Virus record (IMG/VR): IMGVR_UViG_3300036766_002286
Direction: 5' to 3' (one strand)
Source: a virus
Lineage: Duplodnaviria > Caudoviricetes
Length of the DNA: 64,000 nt
The position numbers and the translations under genes are program-made. Positions 18,312 through 44,860 of the stretch are shown in pieces; within the stretch, counting starts at the first letter, position 1, and each line of letters starts with the position of its first letter. The notes under the pieces are model-generated. The model did not search any database. It saw only the letters and a program-made list of their open reading frames with translations, and was not told the origin of the DNA.

Positions 18312-21251
18312 ATGTATACATTTTCTAGATTTTGTAAGCGAGTCGTAAGGCTGCTGTTAGTTTGCGGCCTTTTAGCGTTACCCAGCTTAATCCTCTCCAA
18401 CGGAGCAACCGCTATAGCAGGAACAAGATATTGGGTAGGTGGAACTGGAAACTGGGATGCATCAACTACTACACATTGGTCAGAAACGTCTGGGGGTGCC
18501 GGCGGCGCTGCTGTACCTACTTTTGAAGATGCAGTTATATTTAACTCAGCATCGAACGCAACAGCCTATACGGTTACAGTAACTACGGCTGCGAATGCTG
18601 CTGATATCACTTTTGCTAATCCGGCTTCTGGTGCTTTAACATTTGCTGGGTCATCTACTTTAAATGTGTATGGAAACTTTGCTATAAGCTCCGCTATTAC
18701 TAGAAACTTTACAGGAGCACTTAATTTTGTAGCCACATCTACAGGTAAAACTATTACAGCAAATGGAATAACTTTTGATTCAACTACAACTTTTGAAGGA
18801 GTTGGGGGTGGATGGACTTTGCAAGACGCCTGGCAAACCTCTGCTAGCTTTTGGCTGAAGGCGGGATCGTTGAATACAAATGGAAAAACTGTTACCGTCT
18901 TTGGGGGGATGTATCTTCAAGCTGGGACTACTCGTGCATTAACACTTGGCGCAAGCGTAGTGACTGCCTCAGGGGGATGGATCGCAGGCCAAGATCCAAA
19001 CGGACTAACTATTGATGCTGGCACCTCCATAATAAATACCCCAACCCTGTCAGGAGGAGACCTAACATATAATGTCGTTAACTTCGACGCTGTAAATAAT
19101 TTGAGCATATCCGGTACTAACACATTTGCAACCGTAACGTACTCAGGCGCAGGACCGGGTGCCGGGGCAGGCGAGACTACTGCTAATATGATACTGAGTG
19201 ATAATCAAATCATAGGCACATTAATCATAAATGGTGATTCAACAACAGATCGAGTTCTTGTCACATCTGATACAATAGGAACGCCAAGAACATTAACAGT
19301 GAACACACTACTAACTGTAACTAATATAGACTTTCGTGATATTACTGGTGCTGGAGCGATATCTTGGAATCTGGCTGCAATTACAGGAAAATCCGGTGAT
19401 GCTGGAGGAAATAGTGGAATAACTTTTACACCAAGTGCTACACAAACAGCGAACGGAACCACATCTTTTAGCTGGTCAGACGTCTCTCGTTGGACATCTA
19501 GAGTCCCACTACCGCAAGATGACGTGATCATTAATTTACCATTTGAAGCAGACCAAACAATATTAATGGACATGGGTCGTTCAGGAAGAAATATAGACTT
19601 TACAGGCACAACATGGACGGGCACACTAACTCTAGACCCTGCAGGCAACGATCAAGGAGAGGGAGATATTTTTGGTTCATTAACCCTAGTTCCCAACATG
19701 ACTGTGCTAGCGGAAAGATACTGGGTATTTGCAGGCAGAGCAAATTACACCCTAACAACAGCTGGAATAATATTAGAACGTAGCATTTTTCTACAGGCCC
19801 CAGGTGGCACACTAACATTGGGTGGCAACCTAACTCTGGGCCCAACGAGATTCCTGAACGTCTACGCAGGTACATTAGATGTTTCGGCTTCTAATTATAT
19901 AATCTCAGCGGGGAGTATCCTAGCCCAAGATTCTACAACGACAATAAATTTTGGCTCGGCCGTTCATCTAATAACTGGTGCGGGTACTGCGTTATCCGTT
20001 AATTCAGATAGTACTCTCAACTCAGGAACTTCCATTATTAAATTTACAGACACTTCAGATACAGAGATATATGTAAGTGGCGGTGGTAAAACATATAACA
20101 ATGTGTGGTTTTCACGCGGATCCTCAACTGGAGATATCTATATAGATGGAGCCAATACATTTGCAGACTTCAAGGACGATGGAACTTCTGCTCACACAAT
20201 ATACTTTCAAGAAGATACTATTCAAACCTTTAATACTTTCACAGTTTCTGGCTCAGCTGGTAATTTAATTTCTCTTGACACGGCTTGGCCTGATGTTATC
20301 GGAACATATACACTCACTAAGGCAGGCTCCGGTCAGATATCTAGCGATTATTTAAACATTCAACACGCCATTGCTACCCCGGCTAACACATGGTATGCCG
20401 GGGTGAATAGTGTTAACAATCAGGCAGTCTCGCCAAATGGATCAGGTTGGATTTTTTCGGTACCAGTGCCCCCTACCACAACAACTACTACCACTACAGT
20501 ACCCGCTACAACCACAACCACTACAATACCAGCAACAACTACAACCACTATTATTATTCCAAACACATCAACTACGACACCGGCAACAATCCCAGAAACC
20601 ACAACAACTACTATTGCACCACTCGGTATTCCGAGTGCACCTTTTGGTGTGACTGGTATTCCAGGCAACCGTCGTGTAGTATTACATTGGGAAGCTCCTA
20701 TAGACTCTGGTGATACTCCCATTGTAGATTATGTAGTAGAGTACACTATAGATGGTGGTAGATCTTGGGATTCTATACGTACAGGCCAATCTGCCAGGAC
20801 AAGGGCGGTTTTAGTAAACCTACAAAATGGTCAACCCTACAAGTTCAGAGTTATAGCAGTAAACGACTCTGGACAAAGTGATCCATCCAGCGCATCTGCG
20901 CGTATTATACCAAGAGCACCAGCACTACCACCTGTAGTACAAACTACCACTACAACTACTACGGTTGCGATAAGTGTGCCGACTACAGTACTAGAAAGTG
21001 GCACAACTTCTACGGTCACAACAGTCCTTAGCTCAACATCTACTAGTGTAGCAAACAATATCTCAACTACGACTATCCCAGTTATAGTTATCACAGTTAC
21101 AAATAGTACAGTAATAGAAACTATGACCACAACTATAATTAGAACATGCGTTCTTGCAGCGGGCGGCCAGAAGTGTACTACAAGAACACAACAGCGCAGG
21201 CTAGTAAATTATGGGTTTTCAGCGCACTCTTTCATAGATTCTAGGCGGTAA
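18312..21251 (+). CDS. Large secreted protein: Gly/Thr-rich beta-strand passenger, Thr linker, FN3 domain, conserved Cys2-RR tail
   Basis: Signal peptide; RYWVGGTGNWDAS..HWS..SGGAGGA start; FN3 (LHWEAP..YKFRVIAVN); tail shared with 41198-44860. Confidence 0.8.
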   Translation: MYTFSRFCKRVVRLLLVCGLLALPSLILSNGATAIAGTRYWVGGTGNWDASTTTHWSETSGGAGGAAVPTFEDAVIFNSASNATAYTVTVTTAANAADITFANPASGALTFAGSSTLNVYGNFAISSAITRNFTGALNFVATSTGKTITANGITFDSTTTFEGVGGGWTLQDAWQTSASFWLKAGSLNTNGKTVTVFGGMYLQAGTTRALTLGASVVTASGGWIAGQDPNGLTIDAGTSIINTPTLSGGDLTYNVVNFDAVNNLSISGTNTFATVTYSGAGPGAGAGETTANMILSDNQIIGTLIINGDSTTDRVLVTSDTIGTPRTLTVNTLLTVTNIDFRDITGAGAISWNLAAITGKSGDAGGNSGITFTPSATQTANGTTSFSWSDVSRWTSRVPLPQDDVIINLPFEADQTILMDMGRSGRNIDFTGTTWTGTLTLDPAGNDQGEGDIFGSLTLVPNMTVLAERYWVFAGRANYTLTTAGIILERSIFLQAPGGTLTLGGNLTLGPTRFLNVYAGTLDVSASNYIISAGSILAQDSTTTINFGSAVHLITGAGTALSVNSDSTLNSGTSIIKFTDTSDTEIYVSGGGKTYNNVWFSRGSSTGDIYIDGANTFADFKDDGTSAHTIYFQEDTIQTFNTFTVSGSAGNLISLDTAWPDVIGTYTLTKAGSGQISSDYLNIQHAIATPANTWYAGVNSVNNQAVSPNGSGWIFSVPVPPTTTTTTTTVPATTTTTTIPATTTTTIIIPNTSTTTPATIPETTTTTIAPLGIPSAPFGVTGIPGNRRVVLHWEAPIDSGDTPIVDYVVEYTIDGGRSWDSIRTGQSARTRAVLVNLQNGQPYKFRVIAVNDSGQSDPSSASARIIPRAPALPPVVQTTTTTTTVAISVPTTVLESGTTSTVTTVLSSTSTSVANNISTTTIPVIVITVTNSTVIETMTTTIIRTCVLAAGGQKCTTRTQQRRLVNYGFSAHSFIDSRR

Positions 21252-21298
21252 AAGATTTTATACAGGATGCTAGTTTTGAACAAAGACAACTCAACTGT

Positions 21299-22225
21299 TC
21301 ACAGATCGCTTTTAGCTTGTACCTCTAGCATATCTATGAGTAAAGCTGGATCAGACAATAGAAATGTATGACGAGCCCCAGGAACAATCACAATTTGAGC
21401 GCCCAACCTTAGAGCGGATTTCCGTTGCATCTCTGGAGATAAAACTTCATCAAACTCAGGAATAAGCCACCGGCAGGATGGAAGGTCTAAATCATTCCAT
21501 CTATGTCCATTTAGTGCGCGCATGCAAGCACCGCTCACGACTAACGTACGTAATGGCGGATGGTGAAGTAATGATTCTATTGACACTTGTCCAAAAAAAG
21601 CAGGAATGAGTTGTATATTGTGAATAAAATCCGTCAGTGAAAAGGATCGATCATGAAAGTCCACACTTTTATTATAAGGATCACTTGCAGACGCGCTTAA
21701 ATCCCGCCAACATGTTGTACTCGCTACTATTGTTATGTCTTTAAATCTACCCGGAGATCTTTCAACGGCTGCCAGTGCAACCGGGCCACCAAGAGAAAAC
21801 CCGACAAGGCGCATACTTGCCCAACCTAAATCATTCGCTACTGCGAGCACACAATCCGCTGCTAAATCGAAACTAAAAGGCTTGCCTCCACGCGACAACC
21901 CATGTCCAGGCAAGTCAATAATTGCAAAAGGAGAAGTTATCTTATTTATTACACCAACCCAAGCAGATTCCGCACATTGACCCCAGCCATGTATAAATAT
22001 TATTGGAGACATATTTGGGTCAATACCTGGAGAGTAGCGAAAGCCCACAACACCGTCACGGCACTGAACTGTTCTGCGCTCCCCTGGCAATAAACATTCG
22101 CTCGACGCCACACCCACGGCCTCTCGAATCGCACCAACAAACGATCTTAATATGTCGTTACCAATCGTACCCGCAGCAACCGCGAAAGTAGCGGCGTCAG
22201 AAATGATACGGCGCGGCAATAGCAT
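21299..22225 (-). CDS. Alpha/beta-fold hydrolase
   Basis: FIHGWG, IDLPGHG, GFSLGG nucleophile elbow, PGARH. Confidence 0.88.
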   Translation of the reverse strand: MLLPRRIISDAATFAVAAGTIGNDILRSFVGAIREAVGVASSECLLPGERRTVQCRDGVVGFRYSPGIDPNMSPIIFIHGWGQCAESAWVGVINKITSPFAIIDLPGHGLSRGGKPFSFDLAADCVLAVANDLGWASMRLVGFSLGGPVALAAVERSPGRFKDITIVASTTCWRDLSASASDPYNKSVDFHDRSFSLTDFIHNIQLIPAFFGQVSIESLLHHPPLRTLVVSGACMRALNGHRWNDLDLPSCRWLIPEFDEVLSPEMQRKSALRLGAQIVIVPGARHTFLLSDPALLIDMLEVQAKSDL

Positions 22226-22331
22226 ACTATAAATTGTGCACAAAATCAACAAGACAGCACACAATTATATAAAAATCTGCGTACTATATATAATATGTGC
22301 ATATAACTAGTCATACAGCACTGTATGACAT

Positions 22332-22805
22332 GTGATTTTTAGACATGAACATAGAAAAAAATACAAGGTAAGTATACTTATCATATTTGGAGCTCTTATA
22401 ACCAGTCAAGCCCCGGTAAAGGCCGCCACTATAAAAGAAGCCTCCTTCGCCAACTCAGTTCTGCAGTCTATATACATACTACCCGAGCTTACTATTGACG
22501 TTAAGGATTCTGTGGTTACTTCTTTAAATTTTACTTCCAGTAAAAAAGGTGTAATTAAACAAGCCCGCAACATGTGTATGATGGCACGCAAATCCAATGG
22601 AGAACAGCTCTTATATGAATTTATCACAGAAAAATATAATAACATGCAAGCGGCCATAGATAGTTATCCAGACAATCAAGATTTTCTTTTGGGAGTATTT
22701 GCCTCTGATATAATTATAGTTTCTCTAGCTGCCGGCCCTGGTGGTTTTTGTCCAAAGTACAATAACACTGTTGTTAACGCTATTGATCGCTGGGCCAGTA
22801 CTTAA
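22332..22805 (+). CDS. Secreted hypothetical protein, weakly DUF732-like
   Basis: Signal peptide; ARNMC...GFCPKY cysteine pair. Confidence 0.5.
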   Translation: MIFRHEHRKKYKVSILIIFGALITSQAPVKAATIKEASFANSVLQSIYILPELTIDVKDSVVTSLNFTSSKKGVIKQARNMCMMARKSNGEQLLYEFITEKYNNMQAAIDSYPDNQDFLLGVFASDIIIVSLAAGPGGFCPKYNNTVVNAIDRWAST

Positions 22806-22889
22806 AAAAAACAATACACAACACACTCTTTGCTATGGTGCTTGGTTACTTAATTATTTTAGCTAATAACGTATTTTAAAATTTCAGTT

Positions 22890-23759
22890 TTAAGAAAACC
22901 AGGTTTGTAATCGCGCCCTATGTAGTGCTAGAGCCCCACCAACCGTTGCTACAACCACACTAGTTTCAGCATGGCTATTATCTACTTTTAAATCAACCCC
23001 CGGCCAGTTGTCCAGAGCGGTTTCACCTTCATGCTGTAATGCTTTCGGGTCGGCAATCACACCGTCACGGGTTAATAGTCTAGCTGCTTTAATATCATGT
23101 TCCACATGTAAACGGACCAAAAACATCCCAATCTCTCTACAGTGTCCAGCTTCTTTAGGAAATCTCCCATCCCCCATATACACTGATGTCCCGCTAGCAA
23201 GCAAACCTAAAATACGAGGCACTACCATACGCACGTAACGCTCCGGATCTTCTTCTCGTGCCTCGCTACCAAGATATTGTAGTGCTCGTCGCGTCTCTGG
23301 TGTTCGCGACCAACCGGTCAACCCATGTAATGGATCGCGTGTAATATCCCACAATGCATCCACTATAAATTCGGCATGTTGGGACTTCAGATCTAACATT
23401 TCTGCAACTTCAATTATTGCAGAAGCTTTATCTGGCATATAAGCGAGTTTTTCTAAAATTGTGGTTGCCTCTAATTTTATTCCATCAGCCACCCCAGCTC
23501 GCACATGTTCTTGAGCTCCTAAAAAACTCATAACTGCTGGACCTATTGTATCTTTACCACTTGCCTGCGGTCCGGACACTACTAAAGCTACAACTGTGCC
23601 CTCTGCCAAATTTTTCATGGCCGAAGTAGCAATATCGTCTGGCGTACCCATAATTTTTGCAGTATGCATGAATTTCTCTTTAGTGCGCACGTGATCGTAC
23701 GCCGCTAACACAATACTCCCAGTGTGTTTATAATGCATAAGCACCGCCCTTTTCCTCAC
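22890..23759 (-). CDS. Phage-type deoxynucleoside monophosphate kinase (start uncertain)
   Basis: SGPQASGKDT P-loop, RRALQYLGSEAR, GDGRFPKE, HEGET motifs. Confidence 0.75.
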   Translation of the reverse strand: MRKRAVLMHYKHTGSIVLAAYDHVRTKEKFMHTAKIMGTPDDIATSAMKNLAEGTVVALVVSGPQASGKDTIGPAVMSFLGAQEHVRAGVADGIKLEATTILEKLAYMPDKASAIIEVAEMLDLKSQHAEFIVDALWDITRDPLHGLTGWSRTPETRRALQYLGSEAREEDPERYVRMVVPRILGLLASGTSVYMGDGRFPKEAGHCREIGMFLVRLHVEHDIKAARLLTRDGVIADPKALQHEGETALDNWPGVDLKVDNSHAETSVVVATVGGALALHRARLQTWFS

Positions 23760-23774
23760 TTATTATTGTGCATA
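23755..23774 (-). promoter_or_regulatory. 20-bp element TATGCACAATAATAAGTGAG, copy 1
   Basis: Identical copy at 24507-24526; contains GCACAAT. Confidence 0.7.
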
Positions 23775-23880
23775 GAAGTAGTATTTAGGCATTTAATCTG
23801 CCTAAAGATGCAGTCTATGAACCCTGTAATATATGCTAAATACTGGTGCGGTCATATGTCACGTCTATTTATACTATATG

Positions 23881-24459
23881 TTAGATCTCTGATTTACGGG
23901 CTAAAATTTCAAATATCGCTATTTTCAATTTTTCTAGATCACCATCATTAACGACATGTTCATCGGCTAGTACAATAGGTCTTGCTTTATCTAAAGCAGA
24001 AAGCTCCGCTATGTCTCGATTATCTAGCTCAATTTTTGACAAGCTACGATTACCACGCAGTGCTGCTCTTTTGTATCGAAGGGCCATTGGAGTATGTATC
24101 GCAATCGTTATCATTTGCGTAGCTATTTCTTTTCTAAATATTTCAACTTCTGCCAGTGAATAAATTCCATCTATTACGACTTTGTTACCGGCCTCTAATA
24201 AAGTTTTAATACCTGCAACGGATCTCTTCGCCATCACATCCATGCCCTCAAGCACTCTAAGATCTTCGCGCACTATTTTCTCATTTTCATGATTACGCAC
24301 TAACCCGCGTCTATCTATTTCATTAAGTACAACATCACCAAAATACACTACACTATAACCATTCTCACGTAAAAATTCTGTGACCGTAGATTTTCCCGCT
24401 CCAGCTAATCCAACAAAACCTACTAGTTGTGGCATCTTATCATTTATTTCTATGTTCAT
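23881..24459 (-). CDS. P-loop kinase, dephospho-CoA-kinase-like (archaeal/CPR type)
   Basis: GLAGAGKST, YFGDVV, VVIDG, RD.AE, AD..VVNDG. Confidence 0.75.
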   Translation of the reverse strand: MNIEINDKMPQLVGFVGLAGAGKSTVTEFLRENGYSVVYFGDVVLNEIDRRGLVRNHENEKIVREDLRVLEGMDVMAKRSVAGIKTLLEAGNKVVIDGIYSLAEVEIFRKEIATQMITIAIHTPMALRYKRAALRGNRSLSKIELDNRDIAELSALDKARPIVLADEHVVNDGDLEKLKIAIFEILARKSEI

Positions 24460-24506
24460 TTCAGTTTACCAATTCCTACTTGTGCTTTACATATTGTACA
24501 TAAAGG

Positions 24507-24526
24507 CTCACTTATTATTGTGCATA
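24507..24526 (-). promoter_or_regulatory. 20-bp element, copy 2
   Basis: Identical to 23755-23774. Confidence 0.7.
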
Positions 24527-24696
24527 CTTAAGTGTAATAAGCATATACCCCGGATAAAACATAAGTCACACAACCAAGTTTCAATGGTCAGGAGGCCCAA
24601 CATTCTCGCACGTCAACTAACTAATAATACTAGGGTAGTTTACTAACAAAAAGGCAGGGAAAATTTTTTTAGTCAGTATTAATATTTATAATAATA

Positions 24697-27216
24697 TTAC
24701 AACAAAACTCTTTTTATCAAATCCTCATTTATCAATTTCGCCCATCTACTAGATCCTGGGGCATTTGATGCACCATTCCCTGAACAGATTACTTCAACAG
24801 AAAATCCAACTTTAGCAAGCTCGCCTAAAATAAAATTACCTGGCCCACAATTAGACATTTCTTCCTGGCACCATACAATAGGTAGACCACCTGTTTTAGA
24901 TGCTTCCAATAATTCACACAATTCTATAATTGGTAGCGGGTACAGGTCTTCAATTCTAATAATCTGTATGTCCTTTATATTGCTAGCCGCAGCTGCCTCT
25001 ACAATATTCGCCCCAAGTTTACTATAACATAAAATTGTTTTGCGCACTTCAGAATTTTTGTTAGTTACAAGCAGCGACTGCCATCTGCCTTCTGATAGCT
25101 CACTAACTGCGGATCTTGATCCAATCGCCCGCAACTGTGATTTGGGGGTAAATATTATAAGTGGACAGCGCGGGGACTCCAAAGCTTGTGCCCTAAGCAA
25201 ATGAAATATCTGTGCTCCTGTACTAGGACAAGACAATCGTAATGCTCCAGGCGTAGCGAGTTGTAGGAATCTCTCAACACGTGCTGATGAATGTTCCGGA
25301 CCCTGCCCCTCAGCGCCATGAGGCAGTAGTAGCACTAGTCCAGAAGGATATTCCCATTTGGATTCTCCATTACTTATACAAGTATCAATTGTAATTTGTG
25401 CCCCGTTCGCAAAGTCCCCAAACTGTGCTTCCCACAATACTAGCGTGTTTCCACGGGCCTCTACATCATATCCATATTCAAAAGATAACGCTGCATATTC
25501 GCTAAGAAGTGAATCATATACTTGAAATTTACCAGGCCCAAGAGTGGAAAATCTAGAATTTCTCACACCAGTTTTTTGATCAACTACTATAGCATGCCTT
25601 TGGGCAAAAGTTCCTCGTGCACTATCTTGCCCGCTAAGTCGTATATTTTTACCCTGGCAAAGCAGCGACCCGTACGCCAATGCTTCGCCAACAGCAAAAG
25701 TTAAGGATCCTGCTCGTAAATCACTCAATTGTTCATCTAAAATCCGCTGGATTTTTTCATGGGTGTTCGGCTGTTTAAAGTAAAGATGTTCAGCTATTTT
25801 TAGTAAATCATCAGTTCTTACTCGAGTATCTACTACCGTTTTCGCGCATGTTGGCATAACTACAGGTAGTGTGTTATAAGCTGTTGTTTGTAATGCTTTT
25901 ATATCGGCTTCTATTGTCTTAAAATTTTCTAGAGCACTCTGATACAGCGTCTCTGCATCTCCGCTCTCTAAATTACCTCTCTCTTTTAGAACATCACAAT
26001 ATTGCTTGTAAGCGTTCGGCAGTTTTTCAATTTTGTTATATAGCAGCGGTTGAGTGTATATTGGGTCATCACCCTCATTGTGGCCATTTGTCCGCCAGGC
26101 CTGTACATGTACTATCACATCTGATTGCAATTTTTCTCGCAAGAAAAGCGCTAATTTTCCAGCTCTAAAGCACGCTTCGCAATCTAAACCGTTCACACGA
26201 ATAATAGGCGTATCACATGCCCGCCCCGGACTTGATGCAAACCGCCCAGATCGTCCAGCCTCCGGGTTTGTCGTGAACCCTAGTTGATTATCTACTATAA
26301 TATGTATTGCTCCGGAAACCTCAAATGCCTCAAGTTTTTGCATCTGAAGCACTTCAGATACCACACCTTGTCCACAAAATGCTGCGTCTCCATGTACAAG
26401 GACTCCTAAAGTACTTGTGCCTGTATCTCTCAAAGCCCGAACCATACCTAAGGTTACTGGCGTTACTGCCTCCAAATGCGACGGATTCCAAAGCATAGAT
26501 ACTGCTATTTTATCATCTAACGGGTATCGTCCATCAAATCCTATATGTACATTAACATCTCCAAGTCCTTTTGGCGTATCCTGCAGCTGATCTGAAAATG
26601 CCACAAACAATTCCGCAGCACTCATACCCACAACATGACATAAAATGTTGAACCGTCCGCGATGTGGAGATCCTATTAAAACTTTTTTGATACCGACATC
26701 TGGTACATTTACCATTATACCGGTAAAAACACTTAGTATATTCTCTGATCCCTCAATCCCAAAACGTTTCACACTAGAAAAGCGCAATCCAAAGGTTTCT
26801 TCCAGTGCCTCACAGCTAGCTAGTTGTATTAGTAGCGAATCTTGTGTTGTCTCGTCTATGGTTAAATATTTATATTCTAGAAAAGCTGCTCTGGCGATTT
26901 TCGCACTGTCTGGTTCCATATGAGAAGTCTCTATACTTATCGCACCACACCACGTAGCAATCAAGCGCGAAAGGAGTACTTCAGCTTTAATAGGAGAGTC
27001 AATCTGGCATCCTAGTTCATTGATCCATAATTCGTTGTCTGAGCCAAGACTATGGAAAGCCAAGGTTAGCTCTGGAAGAAAGATTACATCACAAAGAGGA
27101 TTAGTTTTGGCACTAATATGTCCGAACTGAATGAAACTATTCACAAGATTCAAACCATTGATTATGTTCATGGTCATTTGCTTGGTTTCTGGGTTTTTGC
27201 TATCCGTCATTATCAC
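24697..27216 (-). CDS. sucA: 2-oxoglutarate (or 2-oxoadipate) dehydrogenase E1, divergent, no fused E2 domain
   Basis: NPSHLEAV, HGDAAFCGQG ThDP motif, GQDSARGTFAQRH, WEAQFGDFANGAQ, LPHGAEGQGPEHSSAR. Confidence 0.88.
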   Translation of the reverse strand: MIMTDSKNPETKQMTMNIINGLNLVNSFIQFGHISAKTNPLCDVIFLPELTLAFHSLGSDNELWINELGCQIDSPIKAEVLLSRLIATWCGAISIETSHMEPDSAKIARAAFLEYKYLTIDETTQDSLLIQLASCEALEETFGLRFSSVKRFGIEGSENILSVFTGIMVNVPDVGIKKVLIGSPHRGRFNILCHVVGMSAAELFVAFSDQLQDTPKGLGDVNVHIGFDGRYPLDDKIAVSMLWNPSHLEAVTPVTLGMVRALRDTGTSTLGVLVHGDAAFCGQGVVSEVLQMQKLEAFEVSGAIHIIVDNQLGFTTNPEAGRSGRFASSPGRACDTPIIRVNGLDCEACFRAGKLALFLREKLQSDVIVHVQAWRTNGHNEGDDPIYTQPLLYNKIEKLPNAYKQYCDVLKERGNLESGDAETLYQSALENFKTIEADIKALQTTAYNTLPVVMPTCAKTVVDTRVRTDDLLKIAEHLYFKQPNTHEKIQRILDEQLSDLRAGSLTFAVGEALAYGSLLCQGKNIRLSGQDSARGTFAQRHAIVVDQKTGVRNSRFSTLGPGKFQVYDSLLSEYAALSFEYGYDVEARGNTLVLWEAQFGDFANGAQITIDTCISNGESKWEYPSGLVLLLPHGAEGQGPEHSSARVERFLQLATPGALRLSCPSTGAQIFHLLRAQALESPRCPLIIFTPKSQLRAIGSRSAVSELSEGRWQSLLVTNKNSEVRKTILCYSKLGANIVEAAAASNIKDIQIIRIEDLYPLPIIELCELLEASKTGGLPIVWCQEEMSNCGPGNFILGELAKVGFSVEVICSGNGASNAPGSSRWAKLINEDLIKRVLL

Positions 27217-27490
27217 CCCTTTTATCCTATTAACTCTACAATTGATTGTGCTAATTCCTAAGGGTAAGGCATATAATACAGCGGTATTTACGGTAACCTA
27301 CCATCTTTCATTTATCGTGATTAGGTATATCAATCCTAGTTATAACTGGTTGCACCGGCCCAGCTGTCAAGCACAATAAATATACATGGCTGTCACCTCT
27401 AGGTTATTTGAAAGCAATCAAATAGCAAGGAAAATAGTTATAGTTAATTAGCATCTCGCGCGTATAGTATAAAACAATACAGGAGATATT

Positions 27491-27811
27491 ATGAGTGAAT
27501 CTTTACCAACCAGTGCAATCCGCTGGAGCATAGAACAACTTGACGCACGAATGGAGTCCGAGTGGCTTGAAAGCGACGAATACAAAAACAGGGAACGAGG
27601 TCGTGGTGCGTCAGAGCCTAACCGTGAGTGGTGGGAAACGAAATTCTTTTACAAGGAAATCCGCGAGCAGAATGAACAGTTGCAAGCCTTGTCGAATGCA
27701 CTCAAAGAAAAACAGGAAAAACTCGATAACACAATTGGTGTGCTGTCCGAACAATTGACAGTCATCCATATCCAACGGGCACGAATAGCAGAACTAGAGG
27801 GAGGTAAGTAA
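27491..27811 (+). CDS. Small protein, AIR..QLQAL..RIAELE family
   Basis: PTSAIRWSIE...EQLQAL...RARIAELE; AGGAG SD. Confidence 0.8.
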   Translation: MSESLPTSAIRWSIEQLDARMESEWLESDEYKNRERGRGASEPNREWWETKFFYKEIREQNEQLQALSNALKEKQEKLDNTIGVLSEQLTVIHIQRARIAELEGGK

Positions 27812-27975
27812 TGGGATTTTTGATAGGTGATAAGATTCGCAGAATCGACGACAAAACCCGTTGTGGCAAGGTATTGGATTTTGAGGAGTGTCCTGATTTT
27901 TATAGTGGTGTGAGTATTATCACGCCAGAGGGCGGCCATGAACTTTGGCGTTTGGAGGATTGTGAACATGACTGA
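27811..27975 (+). CDS. 54-aa hypothetical protein (not in ORF track)
   Basis: MGFLIGDKIRRIDDKTRCGKVLDFEECPDFYSGVSIITPEGGHELWRLEDCEHD; GGAGG SD; TAATG coupling. Confidence 0.6.
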   Translation: MGFLIGDKIRRIDDKTRCGKVLDFEECPDFYSGVSIITPEGGHELWRLEDCEHD

Positions 27976-28189: not shown

Positions 28190-28191
28190 CT

Positions 28192-28530: not shown

Positions 28531-28531
28531 C

Positions 28532-30085: not shown

Positions 30086-30100
30086 ATATGGGAGAAATTT

Positions 30101-34752: not shown

Positions 34753-34758
34753 CACAAA

Positions 34759-36114: not shown

Positions 36115-36143
36115 AATATACAGTCCTCAATTACCAGATATAG

Positions 36144-36533
36144 TTATTTTAGTCTCTCGACTAGTTCACTTGGTGAAGCAATAATTTCTCTAAAAAGCAC
36201 ATGGCGGCACAGCTCATTATCATCGGCATTCAAGGCGTAGATTGGTTTTCCAACCGCAACAGCATACCCAATTTCCAAAGTCGTACTATTACCAGTATAA
36301 CCATCTTTATTAAATACAAAAACAACATCAGCCATTTGAATTTTGTAAAAATGATCATGAGTAAGCCCAAGGGCTATAAATTTTTTATAATCATCAGACA
36401 TTGCTGCCCACTCATCTTGGCCAGAGTGTAGATAGGGCTCAAAAACAACAACCCCAAGATCTTTTAACTGCACGGCAGATTTTCTCATTTCCGACTTAAA
36501 GCGGCGACTTCCGCACATGACAATTGTTTTCAT
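36144..36533 (-). CDS. Nucleoside 2-deoxyribosyltransferase-like fold protein
   Basis: CGSRRF, HFYKI..AD.VFVFNKDGY.G.ST.LEIGYA...GKPIY. Confidence 0.65.
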   Translation of the reverse strand: MKTIVMCGSRRFKSEMRKSAVQLKDLGVVVFEPYLHSGQDEWAAMSDDYKKFIALGLTHDHFYKIQMADVVFVFNKDGYTGNSTTLEIGYAVAVGKPIYALNADDNELCRHVLFREIIASPSELVERLK

Positions 36534-36638
36534 ATACTATATAGTGCTCTACATGTGAATTTCTGCAATTGTTACCACTATGTCCAAGTAATCTTTATAA
36601 AGCTTGCCAAATCTCAAATTAAACGCACTAATATATCA

Positions 36639-37136
36639 ATGACCCTCTCTCAGACAATATTTTCTATAATTCCAAGCGTCCGCCAAGCTCCAGCCCAAGA
36701 ACAAATAAGTATGGCCATTTCCATTTTATGGGCTATGGCTCTTGGCGCTATTATTGGTCTCGAGCGTAAAAAAGCTGCTAAAGCTTCTGGTATTCGTACT
36801 AGTATGCTTATAGCAGGTGCCTCTGCTTTAGTTGTGGCAGTCTCCGTCTCTCTAACCGCTGCTGGCACTCTCGGTGACGCTAGTCGAGGCATTCATGGAG
36901 TTATCACTGGTATCGGCTTTCTTGGCGCCGGAGCCATTTTTCGCCCTCAGGAAGGTATGGTGTCCGGCCTAACAACAGCTGCCTCTATTTTTTATACAGC
37001 CGCAGTCGGCTGCGCGGTTGCTGCCGGCTTTGGTATTGTAGCCACATTTTCTACCTTGTTTGCAATTTTCGTTCTCCGTGGTATTGGCGCTCTTCAACAT
37101 AAAAACCCCAATCATAGCACAACTGATTCTGATTAA
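36639..37136 (+). CDS. MgtC/SapB family membrane protein
   Basis: LGAIIGLER, SGIRT, VITGIGFLGAGAI, GLTTAASI. Confidence 0.9.
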   Translation: MTLSQTIFSIIPSVRQAPAQEQISMAISILWAMALGAIIGLERKKAAKASGIRTSMLIAGASALVVAVSVSLTAAGTLGDASRGIHGVITGIGFLGAGAIFRPQEGMVSGLTTAASIFYTAAVGCAVAAGFGIVATFSTLFAIFVLRGIGALQHKNPNHSTTDSD

Positions 37137-37630
37137 AGGTCAGTCGTAGGGTATAAACTATTTATTATTTCGTCCCCCAAAGCTTTTATAGCTTTCCATT
37201 TCGCAGACTCATCACTTCCAGGCACCAGCCGTGCAAAACCCAAAGTTATACTATCCCCTTGTCCCCTACTGCCTATGCTGGTTTCGCCTAAAACCGAAGC
37301 ATCCCCTACGTATAAAATTCCTTGGCAGGCATCTAGAACAGATTTAGAGAAGTTCGCTACATCTATATTAGATTTACAAGCCATAAAAGACACCACCACC
37401 GGCCTTGACGCTAAAGGAAGATTCCGGTCTCCAACTAACCAGCCGTTTGGTCTGGCAGATAACATCATTATACCTAAGTTACGTTCAAAGTTTTTTGGCT
37501 TCGACCACACAGTTTTCAGTTTAGGGTTACGTCTAAAGTTACTTTTAGATTGTAGAGCTAGGGGTACGGCTATCCAAAATGCCTGTTCCCAGGCTTCATT
37601 AACTATCAAGTTACTTGTTGGCATTAGCAT
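37133..37630 (-). CDS. RusA-like Holliday junction resolvase
   Basis: DVANFSKSVLDACQGILYVGDASV resembles RusA DxxNxxKxxxD..G...DD.V. Confidence 0.6.
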   Translation of the reverse strand: MLMPTSNLIVNEAWEQAFWIAVPLALQSKSNFRRNPKLKTVWSKPKNFERNLGIMMLSARPNGWLVGDRNLPLASRPVVVSFMACKSNIDVANFSKSVLDACQGILYVGDASVLGETSIGSRGQGDSITLGFARLVPGSDESAKWKAIKALGDEIINSLYPTTDL

Positions 37631-37776
37631 ACATCTTATTGTGCAAGCCATCTGAAACATGGCACTCATTGTTCTCTAGAATTTGGTATTTAAAGTATAT
37701 TTATCAAGTGATTATCCTTGACAGTATGCTCAGCCCCAATAGTATAGGATATAATTATAAGTATCAAAAGGAATTT

Positions 37777-38046
37777 ATGACTCAATCTAAATTTATAAAT
37801 AATGCCAAATCTGATTACAATGACTTTTCTCAGCCCAGGTTTGCTTCTTATGCAGATTTAAAAAATGCTCATAGGCTTGTCTGGGAAAAGCATTTTATAG
37901 CTTATGGTGTTTTACTGCCAGACACTTCTCAAGAAGTCAGAGATATCGCTTTTTTACTATGGACTACATCAAAGGCAGCAAGTCCGATGGCTATATTTGC
38001 TTATTGTCTAAAAGTAGCTTACGCTCTAAGCGAACAGGTTGTTTAG
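37777..38046 (+). CDS. Hypothetical protein
   Basis: ORF after TTGACA/GCCCCAATAGTA and AAGGA. Confidence 0.55.
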   Translation: MTQSKFINNAKSDYNDFSQPRFASYADLKNAHRLVWEKHFIAYGVLLPDTSQEVRDIAFLLWTTSKAASPMAIFAYCLKVAYALSEQVV

Positions 38047-38108
38047 AATTTTTCATTTGTACTATCGAACAGCGCCGCAAGAGTATATCTTATACATAGG
38101 AGTTTATA

Positions 38109-38435
38109 ATGAAAAAATGGTACAAAGATGAGCTGAAACAGAACATAGGCATACCAGCGTCCATACAATTTTTGGCATGGCTTAATGACGATTGCAATAA
38201 GACCCAACGAGATTTATGTACAATAAAGGTAGCAAGATTTCTTGTTGGTGTGTATATTGATGATGGTCCTCATCCCTATCGTTACCTAGATGCTGGCATA
38301 AATCCTACAGTAGAACTTCCGGTTTCATTATTATGGGCTCGTTTAGCCAAAATCTCACCACCACTTACTTTTGTATCAAGACCTAATAAGAAAGACTATC
38401 CACCAGATAGTAAAATACTGTCCTCTAGACAGTAA
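38109..38435 (+). CDS. Hypothetical protein
   Basis: Class A-like promoter 38057-38085; AGGAG. Confidence 0.65.
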   Translation: MKKWYKDELKQNIGIPASIQFLAWLNDDCNKTQRDLCTIKVARFLVGVYIDDGPHPYRYLDAGINPTVELPVSLLWARLAKISPPLTFVSRPNKKDYPPDSKILSSRQ

Positions 38436-38503
38436 TTGTTACTAGTTGAAATGAGCAAGTATTAGAAGTTGCATATTTTAGCATTCCCGGCACAATATTT
38501 ACT

Positions 38504-39241
38504 ATGACTGCTCTCTCACTTCCAGATCTAGATTCTCGTTTTAAAGACTTTACTGACTTCAGTCCAATAGAGATACTGGCTTGCTTAAATAACGATTATG
38601 ACATATCAGATCCTTTTGCAGCAAGACTTATCAGCTACAGCTCTAAAGCTATTCAACGTTGGCACACTCTAACCTCAGCTGCAGTCACACAAAATCAGCA
38701 TGATATAGTAGAAGCAGCTAAGTTACTTTTAGCTTTTTGTAGTCTTATTAAAGAAAAACACGATGATGTACCTGCATGGTTTGAATCTTATCCCTTGGAT
38801 GGAATTCTTATATCTCGTACCGACCTTTTTGCGGTCTCTATTAACAAAGCGGACCCTTCTAATTTTTCTGCTCTTTTATACGACGCTTATGGTCTTGTAG
38901 ACTCTCCCCGTTCTTTGTTGGCTTCCATAGTACCACAGTTTGCAGATATTTATGGTACTGATGCTGGTCTTGCGGGTGCGTGGTTTAGCTGGTCAGAATG
39001 TGTTTGGTTAGCAGAGCTTGCAGGCCTCCATTTTGTGGTTGACGGGACTTCTAAAGAAAATGCCTGTGATAATTTAGTAGAGTTAATTCTAGACGTAGTA
39101 CCTATGATAGCTGATGATGAACTGGCATGGAACGATGACCCAGATATTTTCGCTAAAATAAAAACTTTAATCGATAATGAGCATGATCTGCGTATTTTAC
39201 TATTTGGTAAAAAACATTTCTACAAGGAAACCACAGGATGA
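38504..39241 (+). CDS. Hypothetical acidic protein
   Basis: 245-aa ORF; TTGCAT-16-CACAAT-7nt-ATG; coupled to pth. Confidence 0.7.
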   Translation: MTALSLPDLDSRFKDFTDFSPIEILACLNNDYDISDPFAARLISYSSKAIQRWHTLTSAAVTQNQHDIVEAAKLLLAFCSLIKEKHDDVPAWFESYPLDGILISRTDLFAVSINKADPSNFSALLYDAYGLVDSPRSLLASIVPQFADIYGTDAGLAGAWFSWSECVWLAELAGLHFVVDGTSKENACDNLVELILDVVPMIADDELAWNDDPDIFAKIKTLIDNEHDLRILLFGKKHFYKETTG

Positions 39242-39810
39242 ATACCATTTTGATAGTTGGTTTAGGTAACCCAGAAGACAGATTTGCTAGAACCCCTCAT
39301 AATGTAGGTTTCGATGTTATAGATATTTTAGAAAATAGCTATAAACCACTAATACAGGCAAATCTGTCAAACGTTCTAGTTCGCACCGTAACTACCCAAG
39401 ATCTCACAATAGTACTAGCCAAGCCCCTTACTTACATGAATGGCTCTGGTTTAGCTGTTAAAGCCCTTATGGAAAAATACAGTGTCGTAGATCCAACAAA
39501 TATTATAGTAATTCACGATGAGCTTGATTTCAATCCTGGTCAAGTGCGCATCAAACTGGGCGGCGGTATAGCCGGCCACAATGGTTTGCGTTCCATAGTT
39601 GAACACATTGGTACTCCAGAGTTCATTAGAGTCCGCATTGGGGTAGGCAAACCCCCAGCCGGCACCTCTGGTCTAGACTATGTGCTAGCTGTCCCAGATA
39701 AAGCCACCTTGATTATATTAAATGAGGCCATCAAAGTAGCGGCAGACGCCACTGAGTTTATATGCTCTCGCGGTATATCATACGCCACACAACAAATTAA
39801 TTCTCTATAA
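39238..39810 (+). CDS. pth: Peptidyl-tRNA hydrolase
   Basis: LIVGLGNP, T.HNVGF, KPLTYMN.SG, HDELD, GHNGLRSI, RVRIGVGKP. Confidence 0.95.
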   Translation: MNTILIVGLGNPEDRFARTPHNVGFDVIDILENSYKPLIQANLSNVLVRTVTTQDLTIVLAKPLTYMNGSGLAVKALMEKYSVVDPTNIIVIHDELDFNPGQVRIKLGGGIAGHNGLRSIVEHIGTPEFIRVRIGVGKPPAGTSGLDYVLAVPDKATLIILNEAIKVAADATEFICSRGISYATQQINSL

Positions 39811-39815
39811 TCACA

Positions 39816-41060
39816 CTAGCGTCGGGTATTTACCCACCCGTAATACGCCGGCCCGAAGTTTATTAAGTCCCGCATAATAGTTTTCGTCGTACATGTTTGT
39901 CCGGAAGTTGCAGCTGTACAAGTTTTTGTTATTGTCGTAGTCATGGTCTCTATTATAGTTATAATAGGAGCACTTATCACATCAATAGGCGTTTCAACAA
40001 CCTCAGCTCGAACTTATGTCCTACTATATATTCTCAAAACTTTACGTGGAGTAATTGCCCCCGTAGTCTCTGATGGCGAACTTTGACCACCAGCATTTAC
40101 TGCTATAATTCTGAACTTATAAGCAACATTGTTTTTCAATCCCAAAATAGTAACACTTGTACCTGTTCCTCTATTAAAATTTCGCCCAGCCCAAAACATT
40201 CCACCATCTGAGCTATATTGTATAATGTAGTTTGTAATTGGAAAATTGCCAAAATATATAGGCATTCTCCAGGTCAAATATACTGATCCATCTCCAGGAG
40301 TACCTATAATTTTAAGCGGCCTATTAGGTGCTACATTTAATATAGTAGGCGGCAGAGTCTGTACTACAGGTGCTATAGTTACTACAACTGAAGTTACAGT
40401 AGCAGCCTGTTGTATGGTAGTAGATGTTGTTGCTGGAATCATTAAGATGCTTCCTGTCGGTACAGTTACTTTAATCGGGACTGTAATTGTTGTAGTAACT
40501 AGCACAGTCGTTGGAACTGCAGGTATTGTAGTAGTTTGTACTAACGTTGTAGGTATAATAGTTACCGCTGTTGTGGTAGTTTCCGCGTTCCCCGAAGTTT
40601 CTCCAGGTGATCTTGGTGTAACAAAAATTTGCTGCGATGCGAGCGACCTCTGTCCATTTTGGTCTATTGCTATCACCCGGAACTTATACGAAGTGTCATT
40701 TAGCAAATGCACTATCACATCTTGCGTGTTTGCTGAGGTACCTGAATTTTGGGTCATCCACGCTAAACTGTCTACTGTAGCATATTCTATAATGTAGGTA
40801 TCAACTGTCAATTCCCCAAGGCTCGAAGGCGCAGCCCAAGTCAAAGAAACTTTTTTATTTCCTGGACTACCCAGCACATCAGTTGGAGAGCTTAACTGGG
40901 TCCCCTCCACGGTTGTAGTGGAGGCCTTACTTTCACTAAGTGCATATTTAATAGGAGAAATTCTAGTACCAGTAGTTCCAGCCGGAACCAAAACGGCCAT
41001 GAGTACTATAACTGTGAATAACAGCAGCCAACGCTTAAAATTTAATCTAAAAGTACTCAT
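39816..41060 (-). CDS. Secreted protein with two FN3 domains; ORF stops at an in-frame TAA (40014-40016), with the Cys2-RR tail encoded in frame beyond it
   Basis: Signal peptide, two FN3 domains, Thr linker; continuation ...IIETMTTTITKTCTAATSGQTCTTKTIMRDLINFGPAYYGWVNTRR*. Confidence 0.75.
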
Positions 41061-41197
41061 ACTATAATTGTGGCTACACGCCTTCGCCACACATTCCACA
41101 ATATTACTATATTAATAAGGCTTTAGCCACTTTAACCTTATTATTAAGGTTTTTGTCTATTTATAATAATATGTGTGCGACAAACCTATGACTAATT

Positions 41198-44100
41198 TTA
41201 TCGTCTAGAATCTATAAAAGAGTGTGATGAAAATCCATAGTTTATTAGTCTATGCATTTCTGTCTTTGTGGTGCACTTCTGACCACCTTTTTCTAACACA
41301 CAAGTTCTAGTGATATTTGTAGTCAAGGTTTCTATCACCGTAATGTTTGTAATTGTAATATTTCTAGGAACTGCTGTAGTCGTAGTAGTACTATTCTCTA
41401 CAACTGTTGTAGTAGTACTAGATGGAGTACTTACCGGCAATTCTAAGGTGACTCTAGGAGATACTGCAGATACAACACCCTCTCCCACCATATTGACAGC
41501 CCGTACCCTAAATTGATATGTTTTTCCACCTTTTAGATCTGCCAGAGTTACTCTAGGAACAGATGTTAAACTGTTCGCAAAAGTTGTCCAAGACCGTCCG
41601 TTATTTGTAGTGAATTCTACCAAATATACAATAATAGGTGCCCCACCCGTATTTTCAGGAGCTGACCATTTCAAAAATACTTTATTATTTTTTATAGTAA
41701 TTGTTATAGATGTCGGAGCATCTGGCACTGCTGGTGCTATTGTTGTTGTGGTAACTGGTGGCATAGTTGTAGTAGCAGGAATTGTTGTAGTAGTGGTGGT
41801 AGCTGGTGTTGTAGTTGTAGGAGCTGCTGTAGTAGTTGTAGTTACTCCAGGTGTAACATTCGAAGATGTAGCAGATACTGCTCCAAATCCTAACGCATTT
41901 TGTGCACTCACTCTAAATTGATGTACAGTTCCATTAGTAAGTCCAGTTACAGTTGCTCCAGTTGATGCGGACACTCCATCTGTAAAAGTTGTCCAAGATG
42001 TTCCAGAGTTTGTAGTGTACTCTACCAAGTAATCAGTAATTGCAGATCCACCCGTGTTCGGTGCAGACCATGTCAATGTAGCGGTTGTATTACCAGCTGT
42101 TCCACTAACCGTACCAACTCTTGCAGGTTCCGTAGTAACATTCACAATTCGTCCAGCACCAACATCTACAGCTAGCAGTAAATTACCCATACTTTCTTTG
42201 CTACTTCCAATTACTATTGTATTTTCATAACCAAGTCTTCCGACAGATCCAGCGCCCCAACATTTTATTTTACCTCCATTTAATAGAGCACAAGCATGGG
42301 CACCCGCAGCTACAACCGCTGAGACAGTACGCCCTGCACCAAAGTTTATTGCTAGTAAATTGTCTCCCATCTCGTTGGCATCATCACCTATTGAGTCAGC
42401 ACTACCCTGCCCAAGTTGTCCATTAGAACTAATACCCCAGCATTTTAGCGTTGTATTATCCAGAACTCCGCAAACAAAACCAGTCCCAGCAACTACAGCA
42501 GTTGCCGTACGTCCGGAACCCAAATTTACTGCTGGTAGATTATCACCCATTTCATTACTACCATCTCCACGATTACTAGTATCACCTTGCCCAAGTCGGC
42601 CGCTGGTTCCCGCTCCCCAACATTTCACAGTGTTATTATCTAATAATGCACATACAATATTATCTCCAGCGCTAATCTTTTGTGCGGTACGTCCAGTTCC
42701 TAGACTTACTGCAGATAAGTTATCACCCATCTCATTGGCGCCGTCTCCACGCGTTGCGGTATCACCCAAACCTAGCTCACCAGATCCATTAGATCCCCAA
42801 CATTTCACACTAGCATTATCTAAAAGTGCACAAACTTGTCCATTACCAGCAGTAATAGATGTAGCTGTGCGCCCACTACCTAAATTCACAGCAGGCAAAC
42901 TATCACCCATCTCTCCGGAGGCATCTCCACGGTTATCAGTGTCTCCTAAACCAAGGGAACCAACAGTATTTGCACCCCAGCACTTTACTGTAGCATTATC
43001 TAATATTGCACACGTAAAACCAGAACCAAGTGCTATAGCAGTAGCTGTACGCCCAGTTCCTAAATCTACTACAGGTAAGTTATCTCCCATTTCATTAGCA
43101 CCGTCTCCGCGCGTTGTGGTATCACCATAACCAAGCCTGCCCTGAGCCCCGTTCCCCCAACATTTTACTGTAGCATTGTCTAATATAGCACACGAATGCG
43201 CAGACCCCGCTACAACAATACTTGCTGTACGCCCAGTTCCTAAATCAACTGCTGGCAGATTATCTCCCATTTCAGATGTGGCATCGCCTCGATTATTAGT
43301 ATCTCCATAACCAAGTTGTCCATTACTATTAGATCCCCAACATTTTACAGCACTATTATCTAAAATAACACACGTGGCTGTTGCTTGTGAAGCCATGTTA
43401 CTACTTATAGCAGGCACTGTTCGACTACTGCCCAAGCTTACTTCAGCTAAATTATCACCCATAGCATTTAAGCTTTTTCCTCTATCTGTAATGTCTCCAT
43501 ATCCTAGTAGTCCATCGGAATTACCTCCCCAACATTTTATGGTAGAGTTATCTAATATCACACAGGTCTGTCCGCCTTCACCATTACCATTTCCAGCACT
43601 AAGTGTTTTAGCTGTTCGCCCCGATCCTAAGTCTACAACTGCTAAGTTGTCTCCCATTTCATTAGCACCGTCTCCCCTATCATTAACATCATTATAACCA
43701 AGATATCCTAAATTATTTGCTCCCCAACATTTCACAGTATCATTATCTAATATCGCACAGATCTGTCCAGCGCCGCCCGCACTCAATACTTTTGCAGTTC
43801 GTCCAGTGCCCAAGTCTATAGCAGGAAGATTATCTCCCATCTCACTTGTATTATCACCACGATTATTAGTATCTCCTAAACCAAGTTTTCCTTGTGAATT
43901 GCTGCCCCAGCATTTAGAAGTATTATTATCTAAAATAGCACAACTAACAAGAGCACCGGTACTAATAGTTCTAGCAGTTCGCCCGGTTCCTAAGTTAACC
44001 GCTAGTAAGTTGTCTCCCATTTCATTAGCACCGTCTCCACGTGATGTAGTGTCTTCATAACCCAAACGTCCTAGTGCTCCATTCCCCCAACATTTTACTG

Positions 44101-44860
44101 TATCATTATCTAACAAGGCACAAGTGTGATTTTGGCCACCAGTACTAATTATTTTAGCTGTACGTCCAGTTCCCAAGTCAACTACTGGTAAGCTATCTCC
44201 CATCTCTCCGGCCCCATCACCGCGTGCAGCTACATCTCCCAATCCAAGCTGTCCAAAAGTATTAGACCCCCAACATTTCACAGTATCATTATCTAATAAG
44301 GCGCATGTAAAATTGGTTCCAGCACTGACCCTTTTGGCTGTACGCCCAGTTCCCAAATTAACAGCTAGTAAGCTATCTCCCATCTCTCCGGCCCCATCAC
44401 CGCGCCAGGTTACATCTCCATAACCAAGTTGTCCTTCCGTATTACGTCCCCAACATTTCACTGTGTTATTATCAAGTATCACACAAGTGTGTGCCGATCC
44501 AGCACTGATCATTTTGGCTGTGCGCCCAGTTCCTAAGTCAACTGTTGGTAAGTTATCTCCCATCTCATTTATATTATCACCACGTATAATAAGATCCCCG
44601 TAGCCTAATTGTCCGGAAGAATTACGTCCCCAACATTTCACTGTGTTATTATCAAGTATCACACAAGTATGCGATCCACCGGCTGATATGTAATATCCTA
44701 AACTTATTGCTTGCGTACCGAGTCCGTTCGCATCACTAATGACTGCTTCACCAGGCTCAGCTTGAACGCTATTATATGACACTAAACTTGGCAGTATTAA
44801 AAGCGCACAAACTACCAGCAATCCCATAGCTTGTTTGAAGGTTTTCGTAGTTACACTCAT
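41198..44860 (-). CDS. Secreted RCC1/BLIP-II-repeat protein (14 repeats) with two FN3 domains and the Cys2-RR tail
   Basis: 14 LDNxTVKCWG-type repeats, most followed by GxLGxGD..RGD..EMGDNL; FN3 motifs; Thr linkers. Confidence 0.9.
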   Translation of the reverse strand: MSVTTKTFKQAMGLLVVCALLILPSLVSYNSVQAEPGEAVISDANGLGTQAISLGYYISAGGSHTCVILDNNTVKCWGRNSSGQLGYGDLIIRGDNINEMGDNLPTVDLGTGRTAKMISAGSAHTCVILDNNTVKCWGRNTEGQLGYGDVTWRGDGAGEMGDSLLAVNLGTGRTAKRVSAGTNFTCALLDNDTVKCWGSNTFGQLGLGDVAARGDGAGEMGDSLPVVDLGTGRTAKIISTGGQNHTCALLDNDTVKCWGNGALGRLGYEDTTSRGDGANEMGDNLLAVNLGTGRTARTISTGALVSCAILDNNTSKCWGSNSQGKLGLGDTNNRGDNTSEMGDNLPAIDLGTGRTAKVLSAGGAGQICAILDNDTVKCWGANNLGYLGYNDVNDRGDGANEMGDNLAVVDLGSGRTAKTLSAGNGNGEGGQTCVILDNSTIKCWGGNSDGLLGYGDITDRGKSLNAMGDNLAEVSLGSSRTVPAISSNMASQATATCVILDNSAVKCWGSNSNGQLGYGDTNNRGDATSEMGDNLPAVDLGTGRTASIVVAGSAHSCAILDNATVKCWGNGAQGRLGYGDTTTRGDGANEMGDNLPVVDLGTGRTATAIALGSGFTCAILDNATVKCWGANTVGSLGLGDTDNRGDASGEMGDSLPAVNLGSGRTATSITAGNGQVCALLDNASVKCWGSNGSGELGLGDTATRGDGANEMGDNLSAVSLGTGRTAQKISAGDNIVCALLDNNTVKCWGAGTSGRLGQGDTSNRGDGSNEMGDNLPAVNLGSGRTATAVVAGTGFVCGVLDNTTLKCWGISSNGQLGQGSADSIGDDANEMGDNLLAINFGAGRTVSAVVAAGAHACALLNGGKIKCWGAGSVGRLGYENTIVIGSSKESMGNLLLAVDVGAGRIVNVTTEPARVGTVSGTAGNTTATLTWSAPNTGGSAITDYLVEYTTNSGTSWTTFTDGVSASTGATVTGLTNGTVHQFRVSAQNALGFGAVSATSSNVTPGVTTTTTAAPTTTTPATTTTTTIPATTTMPPVTTTTIAPAVPDAPTSITITIKNNKVFLKWSAPENTGGAPIIVYLVEFTTNNGRSWTTFANSLTSVPRVTLADLKGGKTYQFRVRAVNMVGEGVVSAVSPRVTLELPVSTPSSTTTTVVENSTTTTTAVPRNITITNITVIETLTTNITRTCVLEKGGQKCTTKTEMHRLINYGFSSHSFIDSRR

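Follow-up and report, generated by a model that had tools for sequence, protein, structure and literature searches.

A conserved two-cysteine C-terminal tail on signal-peptide proteins with varied passengers, found on one 616-kb contig only

A short tail with two cysteines and a terminal Arg-Arg (RR) pair closes the frames of several signal-peptide proteins encoded in a 64,000-nucleotide stretch of DNA (the window), read as part of a 616,293-bp JGI contig, an uncultivated sediment replicon, and catalogued as IMG/VR virus record IMGVR_UViG_3300036766_002286. This tail is a real, selected and undescribed module of very narrow occurrence (four genes on a single contig from one sample), and it probably tethers or assembles the proteins that bear it. 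The four bearers are P0005 and P0002; a third gene (gene 3) whose tail lies behind a stop codon; and P0006, a fourth, intact bearer (1236 aa, with RCC1 repeats) that lies on the same contig outside the window and came up, together with P0005 and P0002, when tail 1 was the query of a word-based search in 5.8 billion protein clusters. The bearer genes and tail copies in the window are as follows.

18312..21251 (+): P0005 gene (979 aa), encoding a signal peptide, a beta-rich passenger (to residue ~716), a Thr stalk, one FN3 domain, a second Thr stalk and the tail; the database gene call begins at the same ATG
18312..18413 (+): predicted Sec signal peptide of P0005, ~34 residues, cleaved at ...GATA / IAG, the cleavage site judged by eye
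20664..20894 (+): FN3 domain of P0005 (Pfam PF00041, E 3.3e-12)
21108..21248 (+): tail copy 1, 47 residues, cysteines at -34 and -25, terminal RR; the C-terminus of P0005
41198..44860 (-): P0002 gene (1220 aa), encoding a signal peptide, 14 RCC1 blades, FN3, Thr stalk, FN3, Thr stalk and the tail
41201..41341 (-): tail copy 2, the C-terminus of P0002
40014..41060 (-): gene 3 as encoded (348 aa), with signal peptide, FN3, Thr-rich linker and FN3, stopping at TAA
40014-40016 (-): in-frame TAA between gene 3 and its tail; gene 3 ends ...RIYSRT and then the stop
39819-40013 (-): open frame with tail copy 3, 65 codons, ending at TAG 39816-39818
39819..39959 (-): tail copy 3, the most diverged copy, with every invariant position retained; translated only on read-through of the TAA

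Conservation and position of the tail

The first-pass annotation described three proteins ending in a common tail. The C-termini of 18312-21251 (+) and 41198-44860 (-) are exactly as it gave them and a third tail does exist at 39819-39959 (-), but the gene that begins at 41060 stops, as encoded, at the TAA that precedes it. A six-frame hmmsearch of the window with a profile of the three tails returned the three copies at E 1e-32 to 1e-34 and no others (next best 0.59), a likeness far above chance. The conserved part spans 47-52 residues, with 19-20 invariant columns that include both cysteines and the terminal RR, and reads IETMTTTI-x-(R/K)TC-x8-C-T-x-(K/R)T, followed by L(V/I)N(Y/F)G, about 10 residues, and RR-COOH. 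Cysteines at -34 and -25 from the C-terminus and RR as the last residues are constant in all four copies, each of which is strictly C-terminal on a signal-peptide protein, the passengers being of several unrelated kinds.

Tails 1 and 2 share 74% DNA identity, with a proportion of synonymous differences (pS) of 0.64, a synonymous divergence (dS) of 1.44, which is saturated, and a nonsynonymous divergence (dN) of 0.15; tail 3 shares 53-54% DNA identity with either, at pS >0.8 and dN 0.45-0.48. Saturated synonymous divergence together with low dN indicates that the copies are old and that the peptide is held by purifying selection, and the same saturation led us to reject an artefact of recent duplication. 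The stalks adjoining the tail, by comparison, are only 32-36% alike between some pairs of bearers.

The tails are basic (isoelectric point 9.3-10.8, net charge +2.4 to +4.5), and the last 60 residues of the proteins contain no transmembrane helix: the best Kyte-Doolittle 19-mer scores 0.67-1.28, against 1.9-2.3 for the hydrophobic 19-mers of the bearers' own signal peptides and 2.2 for the transmembrane helices of P0004, another protein of the window. A regular-expression scan of all four proteins found no LPXTG-like pentapeptide near the C-terminus, nor do the four contain a PEP- or PGF-like motif. Hydropathy and motif scans thus agree with the original description of a tail lacking a transmembrane helix and any LPxTG or PEP-CTERM-type motif.

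Modular architecture of the bearers and the interrupted third copy

By eye, the signal peptides of the bearers are of the Sec type, and the common signal motif noted earlier in two of the proteins (LLVCGLLALPSL / LVVCALLILPSL) is correct. A lipoprotein signal was considered and rejected, since the cysteine lies midway along the hydrophobic region and the residue at -1 is Val. Outside the tail there is no cysteine in mature P0005 or in gene 3. The first description had all three window proteins carrying a signal peptide, FN3 and a Thr stalk before the tail. Signal peptides and FN3 domains (the latter by Pfam) are present in each, but the Thr stalk of gene 3 sits between its FN3 domains, and the Thr fraction of the 60 residues preceding its tail is 0.08.

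What differs among the bearers is the passenger, and here Pfam and the count of KCWG blades bear out the three kinds first named (beta-strand-rich, 14 RCC1 repeats, FN3 only): P0005 has a beta-rich domain without a Pfam family, P0002 and P0006 have 14 RCC1 blades (counted by their KCWG motifs, a number that suffices for two seven-bladed propellers), and gene 3 has two FN3 domains only. The earlier idea that passengers are swappable is directly visible in P0006. Over its full length, RCC1 passenger included, P0006 is 55% identical to P0002; its signal peptide, in turn, shares the start MYTFSR with P0005, and its last FN3 domain is 73-87% identical to that of P0005 as opposed to 33-43% to P0002, while its tail-proximal stalk again sides with P0002 (71% identity, versus 36% to P0005). 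On these sequence comparisons we read P0006 as a mosaic of P0005-type and P0002-type modules, and as evidence of recombination among surface-protein genes.

The passenger of P0005, which ends at a boundary marked by GSGWIF (residue ~716), belongs to a large, widespread unnamed family with 2928 matches at E up to 1e-5 and no Pfam or NCBIfam model. Among the 119 listed homologues, 86 have M-x-x-RYWVGGTGNWD as their very first residues and no signal peptide ahead of it, and others have prepilin-type N-termini (P0015, P0063) or a C-terminal PG_binding_1 domain (P0030, P0032, P0036). Since most homologues start at the domain itself and others carry other attachment modules, the signal peptide of P0005 and its stalk-FN3-stalk-tail are grafted modules. 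The family's representative in the window is the passenger region 18426-20459 (+), and its listed proteins are P0010-P0128, from sources that include Omnitrophota and a Thermoplasmata archaeon; 43 of the 119 have a short hydrophobic C-terminus, ...NFF(L/F)(M/L)F, soon after the conserved GSGWIF, which may be an undescribed terminal tag itself.

In the third copy the tail is separated from gene 3 by a single in-frame TAA. Reassignment of TAA to sense was rejected because no stop codon is commoner in the window, where TAA ends 42 of the 69 open reading frames of >=120 codons. An independent Logan assembly of the only public run with this DNA, probably the source sample, at a depth of ~40, has identical letters in the TAA region, and is kept as contigs, in which rare variants are invisible. 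The third copy is probably a recently interrupted gene; a read-through site is less likely.

Predicted structure and comparison with known C-terminal modules

AlphaFold2 models were made for the two most different tails, from the C-terminal 102 residues of P0001 and from the 64 residues of the third tail, with a 4-sequence alignment in each run. Both models consist of one long strand-turn-strand in which a two-residue turn makes the cysteines direct cross-strand partners: strands 39-72 and 75-98 about a turn at 73-74, with C69 opposite C78, for P0001 (core predicted local distance difference test, pLDDT, 65-80), and strands 17-34 and 37-54 about a turn at 35-36, with C31 opposite C40, for the third tail (core pLDDT 73-85). 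The last 10-14 residues fall below pLDDT 50 in both. In each model the cysteine pair occupies a non-hydrogen-bonded pair position, where cross-strand disulfides of hairpins are favoured. The first-pass proposal of a disulfide beta-hairpin module is in this way backed by both predictions. A Foldseek search against the PDB gave no significant match; the best (E 0.43 and weaker) were the stem hairpins of alpha-haemolysin-type pores, which simply represent the long isolated hairpins available in the PDB. Insertion of the ribbon into a membrane as part of a beta-barrel was rejected on the presence of Arg/Lys on both of its faces, in the register as we read it.

Sequence searches returned no relatives beyond the contig. 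Scans of the tails against Pfam and NCBIfam at E up to 10 gave one chance match (Phage_Mu_Gp45, E 0.061) and no other, and the NCBIfam sorting-signal models (PEP-CTERM, PGF-CTERM, GlyGly-CTERM and kin) matched neither tails nor whole proteins at the same threshold. A profile search of PDB sequences gave no match and a feature search of the ESM Atlas no usable one; a HMMER profile search of 1.84 billion representatives found only the query's own protein and P0129, which on reading is a spurious repeat translation and was rejected as a relative. The word-based search of 5.8 billion clusters, rerun at E up to 10 using a profile built from all three tails, returned only the three same-contig proteins P0005, P0002 and P0006. 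Degenerate-pattern scans for the tail in metagenome, viral and species-genome contigs found no locus, tblastn with the tail in phages and plasmids no match, and nothing specific to the tail was found in the literature. A 52-position profile from three sequences needs ~30-35 bits for significance in libraries of such size, so that relatives below roughly 40% identity would be missed by these searches. Within that range the tail matches no described domain of Pfam, NCBIfam or the PDB, as the first-pass annotation had supposed, and no internal or non-contig occurrence was found. Its further expectation, that the tail would recur across genomes with a co-occurring enzyme or scaffold, was not borne out: the tail is on one contig only and has no comparative signature of a sorting system.

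The tail lacks a defining feature of each known signal against which it was tested (LPXTG, exosortase-type, the C-terminal domain (CTD) of the type IX secretion system, dockerin). Proteins with a sortase LPXTG signal resemble the bearers in having a signal peptide, passenger, repeats, a Thr-rich wall-spanning stalk and a basic C-terminal end, but LPXTG and the hydrophobic segment are absent from the tail, which has no NCBIfam match and shares only the terminal RR. The exosortase, archaeosortase and rhombosortase signals have a signature motif, a transmembrane helix and an Arg-rich end; the tail has neither motif nor helix and matches no NCBIfam/TIGRFAM model of them. The type IX CTD (TIGR04183 / TIGR04131) is, like the tail, C-terminal, all-beta, free of transmembrane helices and found on signal-peptide proteins with diverse passengers; it is, however, a 70-100-residue beta-sandwich of Bacteroidota, whereas the tail is half that size, matches neither model and belongs to an Actinobacteria-linked replicon.

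Dockerin (PF00404) is comparable as a small C-terminal module on secreted proteins with many passengers, usually after a Thr/Pro-rich linker, that gives them a common address by docking on a scaffold. Its duplicated Ca-binding loop-helix is helical and EF-hand-like, though, while the tail lacks such a motif, has no PF00404 match at E up to 10, is predicted to form a disulfide beta-hairpin and has no known cohesin-like partner. PG_binding_1 and SLH are likewise C-terminal attachment modules, and PG_binding_1 ends several homologues of the P0005 passenger, as SLH ends a subtilase at one of the loci described below (L002); both are helical modules of 45-60 residues, often repeated, and neither has sequence similarity to the tail. 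As a lead only, thanatin, arenicin, protegrin and the T4 fibritin foldon are comparable to the tail in how large and how charged they are and in having one cross-strand disulfide close to the turn, but peptides of the thanatin type are free and the foldon is a trimerisation unit of phage fibres, and neither is related to the tail in sequence. Strand augmentation is the way in which thanatin docks on a beta-sandwich; the foldon, a hairpin at a C-terminus, serves as a nucleus for assembly.

Genomic setting and possible roles of the tail

The three tail loci have no neighbours in common. P0005 is flanked by a divergent S1 protease on one side and a convergent alpha/beta hydrolase on the other; P0002 and gene 3 lie in tandem between a peptidyl-tRNA hydrolase and a gene pair without Pfam match, the larger member of which is labelled herA. 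Near the P0005 locus, 22332-22805 (+) encodes a protein of ~150 aa with a clear signal peptide (...SQAPVKA/AT), two cysteines and no family match. The protease proposed as a partner is

16771..18030 (-): secreted S1 (chymotrypsin-fold) protease, divergent from P0005; its link to the tail is not supported

The suggestion that this protease processes the tail found no support. Two of the three loci do not have it as a neighbour, and inspection by eye shows Gly in its GACNGDSGGP at the position of the S1-pocket Asp of trypsin, the residue that confers Arg/Lys specificity in that enzyme; cleavage at the Arg-rich tail is unsupported, its sequence giving no pointer to it. The protease also has a C-terminal domain of ~150 residues with no family match. 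Reading the 64-kb window turned up no processing enzyme and no scaffold for the tail. Display on virus particles, also raised at first pass, found no backing either, PHROG matches being only to generic FN3 and RCC1 domains.

P0004 (49204-52443 +), another stalked surface protein, has 1079 residues and no family match. Its N-terminal anchor or signal leads into a set of repeated domains rich in Thr/Ser; these are followed by a Thr stalk of >100 residues, by one more domain and, at the C-terminal end, by transmembrane helices. The order of parts is the same as in the tail bearers, with transmembrane helices in place of the tail. Synteny based on HerA identified four related loci (HerA 56-63% identical), none with a tail nearby, and a HerA scan of genome contigs found nothing. 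Two of these loci, L001 and L003, are metagenome contigs of 40-41% GC with a HerA 62% identical to that of the window; their base composition matches the window's, and on sequence they may come from its nearest known lineage. At L002 (6873-9998, -; 69% GC, HerA 63% identical) the gene beside herA encodes a 1041-residue subtilase ending in SLH domains, an indication that relatives put a known wall-binding module on large exported proteins.

When the C-terminus stays constant while the N-terminal cargo varies, the pattern is the signature of an address or attachment module, and the reverse of what toxin families show. We tentatively read the tail as the part of these modular surface adhesins that docks or anchors them next to the cell, because the order of parts matches that of monoderm wall-anchored proteins, in which the last element is the cell-proximal one. 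The tail is the last part of a cassette that starts with the signal peptide and continues with a variable passenger, FN3 and a Thr-rich stalk, and it is predicted to fold as a long two-stranded beta-ribbon that a Cys-Cys bridge staples near the tip; a short end rich in aromatic and basic residues comes after the ribbon. Once the protein had been exported by Sec, the tail would keep its stalked, adhesin-like passenger attached to the envelope or to a partner protein with neither membrane helix nor sortase, attaching perhaps by beta-strand augmentation, by binding of its net positive charge to anionic envelope polymers, or by both. The first-pass label of a candidate new sorting or attachment signal stands in so far as the tail is undescribed, strictly C-terminal and on varied passengers; the sorting or attachment role itself is read from its position.

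Several observations weigh against docking or anchoring. In the models, Arg/Lys on both faces would leave the ribbon no obvious binding or lipid face, and the ribbon, predicted at moderate confidence from a 4-sequence alignment, would not be a stand-alone fold. The tail is found on one contig only and thus gives no co-occurrence signal; and a stop codon severs one of the four tails from its gene with no visible decay, which shows that a tail-less protein is tolerated. A bolder form of the docking idea, which we regard as doubtful, makes the tail the address tag of a new display system, unlike any known one, on a giant actinobacteria-linked replicon whose adhesins (beta-rich domain, RCC1 propellers) would be interchangeable: the disulfide-stapled basic hairpin would plug into an envelope receptor encoded by the replicon or by the host cell, with the logic of cohesin and dockerin and a new fold, and a protein that lost its tail to the stop codon would no longer be bound and would be released.

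The main rival is that the tail is an assembly module, hairpins of several molecules joining as a small beta-barrel or sheet into multivalent adhesin bundles, so that it would be an oligomerisation nucleus and not an anchor, comparable to the foldon hairpin at the C-terminus of T4 fibritin or to the stem hairpins contributed by the single protomers of a beta-barrel pore. On its own, a ribbon of 18+18 residues is unlikely to be stable and needs a partner, and its nearest geometric look-alikes in the PDB, at non-significant E >=0.4, are the stem hairpins of pores of the alpha-haemolysin type; yet propellers, beta-rich domains and FN3 are typical monomeric beads on a string, and charge on both faces of the ribbon disfavours tight homo-oligomers as well as membrane insertion, and we consider assembly unlikely. 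It is less probable still that the tail has no separate function and is the conserved end, or stalk cap, of a small paralogous family, kept by descent while the N-terminal parts were replaced by recombination. The small number of bearers (four, none off the contig), the way FN3 and stalk travel with the tail and the loss of one copy to a stop codon would all fit such a history, but strong purifying selection persists despite saturated synonymous divergence, and a cap with 19-20 invariant positions, next to stalks as dissimilar as those of some pairs, would still need a job.

A processed sorting signal, cleaved by a dedicated enzyme (possibly the S1 protease) that transfers the protein to a wall or surface acceptor in the manner of sortase, exosortase or PorU, would account for a strictly C-terminal position on exported proteins with different passengers and for the protease transcribed divergently from P0005. 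We think it improbable: the tail combines no transmembrane helix with its basic cluster, has no motif of the LPxTG, PEP or PGF type and no match to an NCBIfam sorting model; the protease stands beside one of three loci with Gly at its specificity position; and known signals occur in many genomes alongside their enzyme, in contrast to a tail on one contig. Most improbable of all is a released peptide, the tail being cut off to act as a cationic, disulfide-stapled beta-hairpin like thanatin, arenicin or protegrin. The charge, the single predicted disulfide and the modelled hairpin geometry are those of such peptides, but the precursors are adhesin-like proteins of 350-1236 aa with no conserved cleavage motif before the tail, a constant C-terminus with variable N-termini is the opposite of the arrangement in toxin and bacteriocin families, and there is no immunity or export gene nearby.

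With the tail on four genes of one contig from one sample, the reach of the finding is limited for now. A 47-residue tether that is free of helix and sortase would, if true, be of use as a compact tag for display in actinobacterial hosts. Should the tail be an attachment module, it would show by what means a 616-kb replicon, whether a giant extrachromosomal element or a tiny symbiont, dresses the surface of a cell with binding domains that can be exchanged, and such decoration, if true, bears on how the replicon meets or holds other cells.

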